Virus record (IMG/VR): IMGVR_UViG_2671180349_000004
DNA length: 17,885 bases
Source: a virus
Lineage: Duplodnaviria > Heunggongvirae > Uroviricota > Caudoviricetes
Reading direction: 5' to 3' (one strand)
Shown here: in pieces, positions 1-5,233 of the stretch
Layout: each line of letters starts with the position of its first letter
Numbering within the stretch: position 1 is the stretch's first letter
Position numbers and translations under genes: made by a program
Notes under the pieces: model-generated
What the model was told of the DNA's origin: nothing
Seen by the model: only the letters and a program-made list of their open reading frames with translations
Database searches by the model: none

Positions 1-2740
<2,740 letters not shown>

Positions 2741-2762
2741 AGCGCGCATAAAACAGGCAAAA

Positions 2763-2782
2763 ACGGGATTTCAGAATCCCGT
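2763..2782. promoter_or_regulatory. 20-bp palindrome ACGGGATT-tcag-AATCCCGT (copy 2), 35 bp upstream of the parM-like start
   Basis: Same 8-bp arms as copy 1. Overlaps the expected -35 region of the parM-like promoter (AT-rich TAATTAAT block at 2789-2797 as a possible -10), consistent with an autoregulatory operator. Confidence 0.4.
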
Positions 2783-2816
2783 AAACGATTAATTAATCAA
2801 CATAAGGAAAAGCGAC

Positions 2817-3776
2817 ATGAAAATTTGTATCGATGACGGCTCCACCAACATCAAGCTGGCATGGACTGAGAACGGCGAACGCCGCAACGCCATCAGCCCG
2901 AACAGCTTCAAGTCGGAATGGTCTGCGCCGTTCGGTGGCACGCAGCCCGCGAACTACATGCTTGATGGCGTGCGCTATGGTTTTGATCCGGTCAGCGATC
3001 GCTTTGTCCAGACGACCGACACGCAATACCAGTACAGCGATGTGAATGTCATTGCCATTCATCACGCGCTGGTCAAATCAGGCATCACACCACAGGAAGT
3101 GGATGTGGTTGTCACCCTGCCACTGAGCGAATATTTCGACACAAACGCACAGCCGGACATGGCCAACATCAACCGCAAAAAAGCAAACGTCATGCGCCCG
3201 GTGGCGTACCAGAACGGAAAAGCATTCACTATCCGTAACGTACGGGTTATGCCTGAATCCATTCCGGCTGGTTTTAAAGCACTGGCTGACATGAGTCCGT
3301 TTGAATCCCTGCTGATTGTGGATTTAGGCGGAACCACGCTGGATGTGGCAAAGGTTCAGGGACAACTGGCAGGTATCAGCCAGGTGTTTTGCGATCCACA
3401 CGTAGGCGTTTCCCTGATGGCCGATGCCGTACTGTCGGTGATGGCCACTAACGGTATGCGCACCAGTCACCACATCGCCAATACCATTATCGAACATCGC
3501 CATGATGAAGCCTGGCTGCGCCAGCACATCCACAATGACGCGCATTACGCCAGCCTGATGGCGGTTATTCGTGAAAAGGAAGAAACACTGAAACAACGCG
3601 TGATCCGCGCGCTGGCGGTTTTTTCGGGTTACGGGCGGGTGATGGTTGTCGGTGGCGGGGCGGAGATTGTGGCACCCGCTATCCGCGAAGCCTGCGGAGT
3701 TAATGCGACTTTCATCGCGGACGGAGTGCCACAATTTGCTCTGGTTAATGGGCTGTACGCAATGAACAAGGAGTAA
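2817..3776 (+). CDS. parM: ParM/StbA-family actin-fold ATPase (type II partition cytomotive protein)
   Basis: 319 aa; RBS AAGGAAAA at 2804-2811. N-terminus MKICIDDGSTNIKLAW and blocks YSDVNVIAIHHAL, KKANVMRPV, VRVMPESIPAG, LLIVDLGGTTLDV, VGVSLM, RVMVVGGGAE, LVNGLY align with plasmid R1 ParM (MLVFIDDGSTNIKLQW..., recalled from memory). Actin-fold phosphate-1 (DDGST), phosphate-2 (DLGGTT) and adenosine (VGGGA) motifs are intact. Confidence 0.9.
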   Translation: MKICIDDGSTNIKLAWTENGERRNAISPNSFKSEWSAPFGGTQPANYMLDGVRYGFDPVSDRFVQTTDTQYQYSDVNVIAIHHALVKSGITPQEVDVVVTLPLSEYFDTNAQPDMANINRKKANVMRPVAYQNGKAFTIRNVRVMPESIPAGFKALADMSPFESLLIVDLGGTTLDVAKVQGQLAGISQVFCDPHVGVSLMADAVLSVMATNGMRTSHHIANTIIEHRHDEAWLRQHIHNDAHYASLMAVIREKEETLKQRVIRALAVFSGYGRVMVVGGGAEIVAPAIREACGVNATFIADGVPQFALVNGLYAMNKE

Positions 3777-3780
3777 ACCA

Positions 3781-4092
3781 ATGACGACACCAACCAGAAG
3801 AATAAGTTTCTATCTGAAGCCAGCTGCCGTCAAGAACGAAGGAGAAGCATGCGCCTGGCTGGACAGCCTTACACCAGAAGCCCGCAAAAGCGGCCAACGC
3901 GTGGCTTTTCTGGCCGGGCTGGCACTTCTGAAGACGAATCCGGCAGAGGCTTACCGACTGGCCGCATGGGCTGATGATGAGATGTTACCTGTGACACAAA
4001 TCAGCTCAAAAAAGTTTGAAGCACAGTCTGCACCAGTGGCTAAGATAACCAGCCAGATGGCTGGGAATATCCGGGCGTTATTTCCTGAGTAA
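3781..4092 (+). CDS. parR: ParR/StbB-like partition adaptor (probable ribbon-helix-helix DNA-binding protein)
   Basis: 103 aa, starts 5 nt after the parM stop, with RBS AAGGAG at 3768-3773. ISFYLKP...LDSLTPEARKSGQRVAFLAGLAL resembles R1 ParR IAFKLNP...LDSIPQGERSRLNRAALTAGLAL (recalled). Size and position immediately downstream of parM fit a parMR operon. Confidence 0.75.
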   Translation: MTTPTRRISFYLKPAAVKNEGEACAWLDSLTPEARKSGQRVAFLAGLALLKTNPAEAYRLAAWADDEMLPVTQISSKKFEAQSAPVAKITSQMAGNIRALFPE

Positions 4093-4107
4093 AAGCATCT
4101 GCGCGAA

Positions 4108-4149
4108 AAATGCTCACGTTTATAGAGAAAATGCTCACGTTTATAGAGA
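4108..4149. repeat. Perfect tandem duplication of a 21-bp unit AAATGCTCACGTTTATAGAGA (2 copies)
   Basis: Read directly: 4108-4128 is identical to 4129-4149. Begins 16 bp after the parR stop. Confidence 0.95.
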
Positions 4150-4241
4150 CAGTATCATTCCATTTGGCACACTTACTTCAATAATCGATCTGTTAAACAA
4201 ATAGATTGTCTATTATCTATCGATTAAAACGATCAATTATC

Positions 4242-4269
4242 TTGACAGTAATGTGCCTTTTTGTAAGAT
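4242..4269 (+). promoter_or_regulatory. Candidate sigma70 promoter: -35 TTGACA (4242-4247), 16-bp spacer, -10 TAAGAT (4264-4269) preceded by TG
   Basis: Perfect -35 hexamer and a 4/6 match at -10, in an AT-rich block. The palindrome AATAGA-ttg-TCTATT at 4200-4214 lies about 30 bp upstream as a possible operator. Predicted transcription start near 4276-4278. Confidence 0.45.
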
Positions 4270-4276
4270 CGTTCGC

Positions 4277-4460
4277 ATTGTGAGCGACAAGATAATTGCG
4301 CGGCATTGTCCATGCAAAACGCCCCAATAGCAGCAACTATTGGTGCGTAAAACTCGGTCGGACTCACTTAACCTGATATGCGTGCCTTCCGAAGTAAATC
4401 AAAATGTGCGTCGTATATTTTATTGCTTACACGCACCTCTGTAAAGGCACGCATATTTTT
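4277..4460 (+). ncRNA. Candidate structured 5' leader or small RNA (about 185 nt) ending in a terminator-like stem plus U-tract
   Basis: Hairpin CCAATAG-cagcaa-CTATTGG at 4324-4343. A 13-bp perfect inverted repeat ATATGCGTGCCTT (4376-4388) / AAGGCACGCATAT (4444-4456) encloses a 55-nt segment with an inner GTGCGT/ACGCAC pairing (4406-4411 / 4431-4436) and is followed by TTTT (4457-4460). The RBS and start of the downstream ORF follow within 20 nt. Confidence 0.3.
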
Positions 4461-4477
4461 CCTATGAGGTAAATAAA

Positions 4478-4747
4478 GTGCGGGCTAAAACAGGTATTTG
4501 CAAGAACCCTCATCGTTATAATCCAACATTTCTGTCTCTCCCTGAATATCAAGGACAAGAAGGTCGGCACAAATGCGCTGCCTGTGCTTTTGAGCTAGGC
4601 ATAAAAGATGCGCTTGAAGGACGCGCTATGGCTCAGAATGATTTAGTTTTAGCTAACATTCCGTTTAGCCAGGCTGGAACTGTAAGGCACAGAGATGCCT
4701 ATGAAGCATATGTTCGTGGTTGGCGATTAATACACAGCAACAATTGA
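4478..4747 (+). CDS. Hypothetical small protein (89 aa), possible Cys/His metal-binding motif
   Basis: GTG start at 4478 with RBS GAGGT at 4466-4470. C8-x3-H12 ... H31-x-C33-x2-C36 arrangement. Followed 10 nt downstream by a strong intrinsic terminator. No family recognised from memory. Confidence 0.5.
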   Translation: MRAKTGICKNPHRYNPTFLSLPEYQGQEGRHKCAACAFELGIKDALEGRAMAQNDLVLANIPFSQAGTVRHRDAYEAYVRGWRLIHSNN

Positions 4748-4756
4748 TACTTTTGA

Positions 4757-4779
4757 AGCGCCGATAAGGCGCTTTTTTT
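4757..4779 (+). terminator. Rho-independent terminator: stem AGCGCC / GGCGCT, loop GATAA, then seven T
   Basis: Read directly: 4757-4762 pairs with 4768-4773, followed by a T-run to 4779. Lies 10 nt after the stop of the 89-aa ORF. Confidence 0.75.
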
Positions 4780-5061
4780 GTTTGCACGATAGTGCACAAG
4801 TTTGCACAATTTTTTTGAACGACTTTTTGTACTTCCGGCCCGCGTGGTGGCTGGATCCGTCAAGGATCCGTACGTGCACAAAAAAACGCGTTTTTTCTGC
4901 GCGCAGGTGACGGGGGAACAGCCCGCGTTTCAGGGGGTAAATAGCATTCCCTGAACGATGTCGCAGAGATACAACAGAATGGCCGTATTTCTCACGCTGA
5001 GCGTGAAAAATACGTGAGGGATTCTGGTTTGATGGGGTGAAAGGTAAGGCCGTCAAAATCG

Positions 5062-5080
5062 CACTGAGGCGGCGAGAACA
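5062..5080. other. Candidate cos (cohesive-end) core, G-rich: GCACTGAGGCGGCGAGAACA
   Basis: In P2-family genomes cos lies just beyond the 3' end of Q. The block GAGGCGGCGAGAACA (5066-5080) matches 12 of 15 positions of the P2 cohesive-end core GAGGCGGGGAAAGCA as I recall it. A second weaker candidate GGTGACGGGGGAACAGCCC sits at 4906-4924. Not verifiable here. Confidence 0.3.
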
Positions 5081-5183
5081 TGCAGTCAGCGCAGTGGGAT
5101 TGCGTAAGAATCTGACCGTCGATGATGGCAATAAGCAGGAAAGCGTCGTGAAATTATCTGACTGATACAGGAGCTGGAGAGTC

Positions 5184-5206
5184 GGGGCATAAATTTTTTA
5201 TGCCCC
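5184..5206. repeat. Hairpin-forming palindrome GGGGCATAAA-ttt-TTTATGCCCC, 28 bp beyond the Q stop
   Basis: Read directly: 10-bp perfect arms with a 3-nt centre. No U-tract follows on either strand, so not a canonical intrinsic terminator. Confidence 0.6.
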
Positions 5207-5233
5207 GGCGAAGCAGCAGACAAGCGAAGCGCG

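Follow-up and report, generated by a model that had tools for sequence, protein, structure and literature searches.

The window analysed here is a stretch of 17,885 nucleotides (nt) from a virus of the Caudoviricetes (IMG/VR record IMGVR_UViG_2671180349_000004), and the system in question is a small partition cassette on its plus strand, located between the replication gene and the virion genes of a P2-like phage. The cassette consists of parM (positions 2817..3776), which encodes an actin-fold ATPase of the R1 ParM/StbA family, and parR (positions 3781..4092), which encodes an adaptor protein. Two similar repeats upstream of parM are candidate sites for ParR binding.

The parM gene runs from an ATG start to a TAA stop, is preceded by the ribosome-binding site AAGGA (positions 2804-2808) and encodes a protein of 319 amino acids. 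We compared this protein with family models and found that it matched Pfam StbA_N (PF06406; E = 6.9e-82, 273.5 bits with a cut-off of 24.6) and the Pfam ParM C-terminal domain (PF21523; E = 6.2e-69, 231.5 bits with a cut-off of 27.4), and that it falls in PHROG 691, 'partition protein'. In a phmmer search against PDB sequences, R1 ParM was matched over the full length (E = 1.3e-92; entries 1mwk, 5aey and 4a62 at ~1e-92). The two proteins share 46% global identity, and the S19-G21 loop is one residue shorter in the window ParM than in R1 ParM. The NCBIfam equivalogs for ParM (PRK13917) and PRTRC_D were also tried and rejected, as their scores were far under the cut-offs; these models cover other ParM subfamilies. 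The similarity to R1 ParM is far beyond chance, and the gene product is ParM. Indeed, RefSeq and phage records already name the gene 'plasmid segregation protein ParM', which is an ordinary and correct annotation.

An earlier note on this DNA had described four sequence blocks of ParM as intact or conserved, and we found each of them exactly as quoted: the phosphate-1 loop IDDGSTNIK (nt 2829-2855; amino acids 5-13, R1 residues 5-13), the phosphate-2 loop IVDLGGTTLDV (nt 3315-3347; amino acids 167-177, in which Asp169 corresponds to R1 Asp170 and G171-T174 to R1 172-175), the adenosine-binding block VMVVGGGAE (nt 3639-3665; amino acids 275-283) and the C-terminal block LVNGLY (nt 3741-3758; amino acids 309-314), in which L309, V310 and G312 are invariant. 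In addition, the PESIPAG block (3252..3272) contains Glu147 (codon at nt 3255-3257), the equivalent of the catalytic Glu148 of R1 (PMC3794156). In an alignment to R1 ParM, the residues D6, D7, G8, S9, T10, K13, Q73, E148 and D170 (R1 numbering) are all kept in the window ParM, as are G172-T175, the GGG of positions 280-282 and Q308. The phosphate-binding and catalytic positions were invariant in all 54 aligned homologs; substitutions of catalytic Asp or Glu, which the earlier note had named as a possible objection, were not found.

The predicted structure agrees with the family assignment. The AlphaFold2 model computed with a 54-sequence multiple sequence alignment had a predicted local distance difference test score (pLDDT) of 91.2 and a predicted template modelling score of 0.88; a prediction from the single sequence was unusable (pLDDT 37). 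Using Foldseek, the best match of the model was 4a62_A (template modelling (TM) score 0.95, root-mean-square deviation 1.5 Å, E = 2e-44), i.e. R1 ParM with AMPPNP and a ParR peptide. The model thus adopts the actin/Hsp70 fold of four subdomains, as had been expected, and takes a closed, filament-like conformation. The state of R1 ParM in 4A62 is reported to be quasi-equivalent to the filament conformation (PMC3794156).

The parR gene encodes 103 amino acids and has its own ribosome-binding site (AAGGAG, positions 3768-3773, 7 nt before the ATG). The gap of 4 nt between the parM stop and the parR ATG, from which an operon-like arrangement had been proposed, was confirmed in the window and is the same in 80 of 80 related viral contigs. 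ParR matched Pfam Plasmid_stab_B (PF10784; E = 9.8e-24), and a profile of phage and R100 ParRs matched pB171 ParR (PDB 2jd3; E = 1.2e-12), a match that is limited to the ribbon-helix-helix (RHH) N-domain. An alignment with the ParR of the R100 record covers both proteins from end to end: the N-terminal ribbon strand RRISFYLKP (nt 3796-3822, plus strand) lies opposite RRTIAFKLNP, and the conserved C-terminal tail MAGNIRALFPE (nt 4057-4089, plus strand) aligns with the C-terminal end of the R100 protein. For the phage clade as a whole, the C-terminus xxKKNIxxLFPE (a KKN-x3-LFP tail) aligns with ETKKNAMKLIN of R100 ParR; N96 is invariant, and F101 and P102 are part of the conserved terminal motif. 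In R1, the C-terminal 17 residues of ParR are the part that was crystallised with ParM in 4A62 (PMC3794156). Judged by its sequence, the downstream gene product is a true ParR, with an RHH N-domain and a predicted ParM-binding tail.

Two 42-nt repeats (no strand assigned) precede parM. Repeat 1 (2674..2715) holds the 20-nt palindrome ACGGGATTCACAAATCCCGT at 2690-2709, which sits within the last codons of gpA, and repeat 2 (2747..2788), which is 81% identical to repeat 1 and lies 73 nt further downstream, holds the palindrome ACGGGATTTCAGAATCCCGT at 2763-2782. The former is a candidate ParR site, i.e. one half of a putative parC, and the latter a candidate operator/centromere half. Both palindromes share the consensus ACGGGATT-N4-AATCCCGT, a pattern with two matches in the window versus 0.04 expected. 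These repeats are the only conserved non-coding DNA adjoining the parMR operon, and the palindromes are kept across relatives. For example, a Plesiomonas relative (L012) has two 26-nt repeats 72 nt apart at the same place, and the DNA upstream of parM in distant phage relatives shows, as judged by eye, a recurrent CGGGA-like core, which reads TGGGA in the Enterobacter locus. As a further observation, the last codons of gpA are repeated by this 73-nt duplication (2674-2788), with the out-of-frame echo KQAKTGFQNPVND. We also considered the palindromes as intrinsic plus-strand terminators of the early operon and rejected this, since no U-tract follows on the plus strand.

Upstream of parM, we found neither a strong sigma-70 promoter nor an Ogr-type late motif (TGT-N12-ACA). 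The only promoter-like match before parM was a weak one, TTCAGA-16-ATTAAT at 2770-2797, whose -35 element lies in the loop of palindrome 2. The simplest reading is that parMR, which probably extends the gpA early operon, would be read through from that operon, possibly with the addition of a weak ParR-controlled promoter.

The surrounding genes identify the element that carries the cassette. On the 5΄ side, gpA (68..2740, plus strand; 5΄ end cut by the window) encodes a P2-type replication endonuclease (Pfam Phage_GPA, 1.1e-128) and is annotated 'replication endonuclease' in matching records. This gpA is long: it exceeds 890 amino acids in the window, and the gene has 2823 nt in phage P88, with 785-789 amino acids in the Plesiomonas and Enterobacter homologs; the additional part is C-terminal. 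On the 3΄ side of the cassette are genes for the portal, large terminase, scaffold, P2-type capsid and other virion proteins. A prophage integrated beside pdxB in E. coli 2014C-3075 shares 99.9% identity with the window and contains an integrase, a C repressor and cox; named relatives are phages P88, phiSM and 520873 and other Xuanwuvirus members. Phage-plasmids such as P1 and N15 persist as plasmids, with a plasmid replicon and usually without an integrase; in the element here, integrase, C repressor and cox are present, and gpA is the sole replication protein. The host element is a P88-like (Xuanwuvirus, P2-like) integrating temperate phage and not a plasmid prophage.

The cassette was found in 1303 of 5426 RefSeq complete E. 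coli genomes (about a quarter), including O157:H7, sequence type 131 (ST131) and enterotoxigenic (ETEC) strains. We note three individual records. A complete 34.5-kb P88-like genome, with integrase, C, cox, gpA, parMR and virion genes, has been deposited as a circular E. coli plasmid (pZ1323PEC0009-2, NZ_CP148288.1), and could be an episomal or induced replicative form. In E. coli O157:H7 EDL933 (NZ_CP124740.1, 4766566-4775660), the prophage is degraded, with an IS3 element after parR and the portal, terminase and capsid genes gone; the genes gpA, parM and parR have remained intact. The same enterobacterial prophage region, with a 97% identical ParM, is present on a 226-kb contig (NZ_JBQPOM010000071.1) assigned to the Gram-positive genus Vagococcus (Vagococcus sp. 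WN89Y), which probably reflects contamination or a mislabelled assembly.

To estimate the selection acting on parM, we compared alleles from related loci. The pairwise ratio of nonsynonymous to synonymous substitution rates (dN/dS) was 0.07 for eight loci. Among the 62 distinct alleles of 80 IMG/VR loci, 136 variant codons were synonymous and 49 nonsynonymous (per-site ratio 0.11), and no variant codons were observed at catalytic positions. In viral contigs, reading frames were intact for ParM in 80/80 and for complete ParR in 77/78. These results demonstrate that parM is under purifying selection. The expectation of the earlier note that the gene is not a decaying pseudogene and is selected in a phage context is accordingly borne out, also by the gene order: the order gpA, parM, parR, variable cargo and ogr/portal/terminase is common to relatives in Hafnia, Plesiomonas, Serratia and Enterobacter (54-62% identity), so that the same slot is occupied in P2-like prophages of five genera. 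A scan of genome contigs with ParM alone yielded three near-identical loci; the distant relatives were obtained by protein search and contig look-ups. In a neighbour-joining tree, the phage-borne ParMs form one clade, outside which are the plasmid-borne R1 ParM, a homolog beside a Rep3 plasmid replicon (P0042) and another with a plasmid-like, non-P2 neighbourhood (P0046). The shared slot across genera and the single phage clade therefore indicate that, rather than transient cargo, the cassette is an old and conserved component of the phage backbone.

ParM and ParR differ in their variability. Among E. coli-type loci, ParM sequences were 97-100% identical and ParR sequences 52-100%, with 42 ParR variants in the 80 loci. 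These comprise two N-domain types and a hypervariable linker (parR codons ~19-92, window positions 3836-4056); this polymorphism spares the ribbon strand and the C-terminal motif, both of which are conserved. The linker type tracks the type of the downstream cargo, and therefore the 3΄ half of parR appears to recombine along with the adjacent variable locus, which suggests recombination breakpoints inside parR. No association was found between ParM variants and ParR tail type.

The DNA directly 3΄ of parR is itself hypervariable, and relatives hold HicAB, a KAP nucleoside triphosphatase (NTPase) or other small open reading frames (ORFs) at this place. In the window, parR and the portal gene are separated by a small, self-contained transcription unit (region 4093-5233) with a promoter-like TTGACA-16-TAAGAT (4242-4269), an ORF of 89 amino acids (4478-4747) belonging to PHROG 3941, a function-unknown family, and a terminator-like GC hairpin with a T-run (4755-4775). 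The product of this ORF had no match in Pfam, NCBIfam or PADLOC. Positions 4170-4300 are AT-rich and contain nested repeats (CAATTATCTTG / CAAGATAATTG at 4234-4244 and 4288-4298; AATAATCGATCTGTTAAACA...TCTATCGATTAAAACGATCAAT); a similar block precedes TTGACAG in relatives with a different ParR type. This segment is probably the regulatory region of the cargo gene. Directly after parR is a perfect 2 x 21-nt tandem repeat, AAAATGCTCACGTTTATAGAG (4107-4148). Since only one copy is found in most relatives that share this downstream DNA, the second copy in the window is a recent duplication. We considered the tandem as a downstream centromere and rejected it: loci with the same ParR type mostly have one copy, and others have unrelated DNA.

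Taken together, we consider it probable that the locus represents a complete ParMRC cassette of the R1 type (type II) that is fixed in the P88-like phage backbone and acts on circular extrachromosomal phage DNA. According to this model, ParM with ATP would form dynamic actin-like filaments, and ParR dimers would bind, via their RHH N-domains, to the two palindromic repeats just upstream of parM. The conserved tail at the C-terminus of ParR would capture filament ends, and growing filaments would then push, separate or position the circular copies of phage DNA. Integration is the near-constant state of the prophage, and the cassette can therefore matter only during an extrachromosomal phase; the possible occasions are infection before integration, excision with gpA-driven replication, and rare episomal carriage. 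Expression of parMR probably occurs as the last part of the early replication operon. A more specific version of this model can be advanced only tentatively. In this version, an integrating P2-like lineage would have domesticated an R1-type actin spindle for short extrachromosomal phases (establishment, excision and rolling-circle replication, or facultative plasmid carriage where attB is not available), with a two-site centromere, remodelled contacts between domains IIA and IIB (M214, N296 and T298) and with ribose (N222), and dynamics unlike those of R1.

Several observations weigh against the favoured reading. In the complete E. coli genomes, 1449 of 1451 copies of the cassette lie in the chromosome. 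The cassette is therefore no classic plasmid-prophage system, and any partition role must be transient. It could be supposed that the cassette nevertheless keeps the phage in its lysogens as a low-copy plasmid, in the manner of P1 or N15, with integration as the alternative state, given its homology to a true plasmid partition system, the circular record pZ1323PEC0009-2 and a few further plasmid records that match. However, in addition to the chromosomal counts, the near-identical match is integrated beside pdxB and equipped with integrase, C repressor and cox, the circular record has an integrase as well and could be an induced form, and a plasmid-type replication initiator is absent, leaving gpA alone; we regard plasmid lysogeny as unlikely. 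Conversely, a partition system on an integrated element looks superfluous, and the cassette might be a non-functional relic of past recombination with a plasmid. The low dN/dS values, the intact frames of both genes and the retention of the gene in the same slot among relatives with 54-62% protein identity already refute this view, as far as sequence analysis can, and it is highly improbable. In the literature searched, we found annotation-level mentions only for ParM in P88, Xuanwuvirus or P2-like phages, and no experiment or functional study on this protein. A role in exclusion, in which parMR would be an accessory cargo that, to the benefit of phage or host, disturbs how IncF plasmids (R1/R100-type) or the genomes of related prophages in the same cell are partitioned, would fit with the presence of R1-type ParM in >1600 plasmid records, the similarity of the ParR tail to that of R100, the adjacent hypervariable cargo and the high polymorphism of ParR but not of ParM. 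However, parMR remains constant and syntenic across the five genera while the adjacent cargo turns over, neither ParM nor ParR matched the PADLOC defence models, the upstream repeats are unlike the parC iterons of R100, and ParM is only 46% identical to that of R1. Thus, exclusion is very unlikely.

The remaining objections concern the filament and the centromere. The earlier note held that all nucleotide-binding motifs are retained, which is true of the phosphate-binding and catalytic residues but not of the ribose contact: Asp223 of R1 ParM touches ribose (PMC3794156); each of the 41 sequences from outside the phage-associated clade has Asp at this position, and the window ParM has Asn222. 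Moreover, alanine mutants at eleven R1 residues (F32, D58, S61, Y107, Y108, L163, S189, R214, T215, R297 and R300) abolish polymerisation (PMC3794156). In the window ParM, five of the eleven are identical (F31, D57, S60, Y106 and S188) and two show conservative changes (F107 and F162), while four are replaced (R214 by G213, T215 by M214, R297 by N296 and R300 by T298). Met214 and Asn222 are located in a domain IIB stretch that is unlike plasmid ParMs (3456..3482, plus strand), and Asn296 and Thr298 are encoded at 3702..3710 (plus strand). None of the 41 sequences from outside the phage-associated clade departs from T215 or R300, and the Serratia/Enterobacter phage subclade retains both residues; the replacements are confined to the E. 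coli/Hafnia/Plesiomonas subclade, in which D223 is replaced as well. Such a pattern could be expected if ParM had remained a conserved ATPase but had lost the formation of R1-like filaments, for example a ParR-dependent regulator or a short-oligomer organiser of DNA. We consider this quite unlikely. By analogy with actin, residues 297/300 of IIA and 214/215 of IIB would face one another across one longitudinal contact, and therefore their joint replacement could reflect a co-adapted interface and not a loss. The second filament contact, between the IB loop and the IA/IIA cleft, is intact, with identical or conservative residues, and the cleft doubles as the pocket for the ParR tail; furthermore, the filament-capping ParR tail is retained, and the AlphaFold2 model is closed and filament-like. 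Filament formation by the window ParM is thus likely, with the Asn at the ribose contact and the four replaced polymerisation residues as caveats.

With respect to the centromere, only two candidate sites are present, compared with the ten 11-bp iterons that flank the promoter in R1 parC (PMC3794156). The mismatches in the palindrome arms of relatives are uncompensated, and one of 80 related loci has a single copy of the upstream repeat. We found no covariation between upstream repeat variants and ParR N-domain type (A or B); types A and B share the same upstream variants, and therefore covariation provides no evidence for binding. In addition, the palindromes score as terminator-like on the minus strand. 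Their reading as minus-strand terminators, where no gene is expected upstream, is a minor alternative to that as ParR sites.

Among known systems, the cassette is closest to the type II ParMRC (StbAB) system of plasmids R1, R100 and NR1, with which it shares the order of parM followed by parR, repeats upstream of parM, a ParM that is similar over its full length in sequence, catalytic and phosphate-binding residues and predicted fold (TM 0.95), and a ParR that aligns end to end, from the RHH strand to the C-terminal tail. With pB171 ParR, it shares the RHH N-domain. The differences are that the R1 and R100 systems reside on low-copy plasmids, whereas the window cassette resides on an integrating P2-like prophage; that two 20-nt palindromes 73 nt apart take the place of the promoter-flanking iterons of R1; that R214, T215, R297, R300 and D223 of R1 ParM are replaced and the S19-G21 loop is shortened; and that ParR has 103 amino acids compared with 117 in R100, and the ParRs of E. 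coli phages are without an internal helix found in R100 ParR and in longer phage ParRs. The R1 ParM family already has genetics, structures and assays, and the natural substitutions at polymerisation-critical positions of R1 would offer a direct way to learn which of the filament contacts cannot be dispensed with. About one in four complete E. coli genomes thus has, within a prophage in the chromosome, a partition system of the actin-like type that is intact and under selection.

In terms of function, the closest analogy is the AlpC/AlpA/alpS system of the Corynebacterium glutamicum prophage CGP3 (PMC4446434). There, an actin-like ATPase, AlpC, and a co-transcribed adaptor, AlpA, are encoded by an integrated prophage, and the adaptor binds upstream of its own operon; AlpAC is produced soon after induction, and circular phage DNA depends on it for efficient replication (PMC4446434). 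AlpC is, however, a distant actin-like protein of an actinobacterial phage and not an R1-family ParM, and it is likened to the window system by function only. A second analogy is SrpMRC of the SXT/R391 integrative and conjugative elements (ICEs), which is likewise a type II system on a normally integrated element, acts only on the transient excised circle, which it stabilises, and is co-expressed with excision and replication functions (PMC4489591). SrpM is distant from R1 ParM, SrpR has no recognisable ParR homology, and the element is an ICE and not a phage. By analogy with these two systems, the most likely role of the cassette would be to position or segregate circular extrachromosomal phage DNA. 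If it does act on excised or incoming phage DNA, both the AlpAC finding that phages use a cytoskeleton of their own for replication and the SrpMRC precedent for partition on integrating elements would extend to E. coli, the best-studied bacterium, and to the best-understood ParM family.

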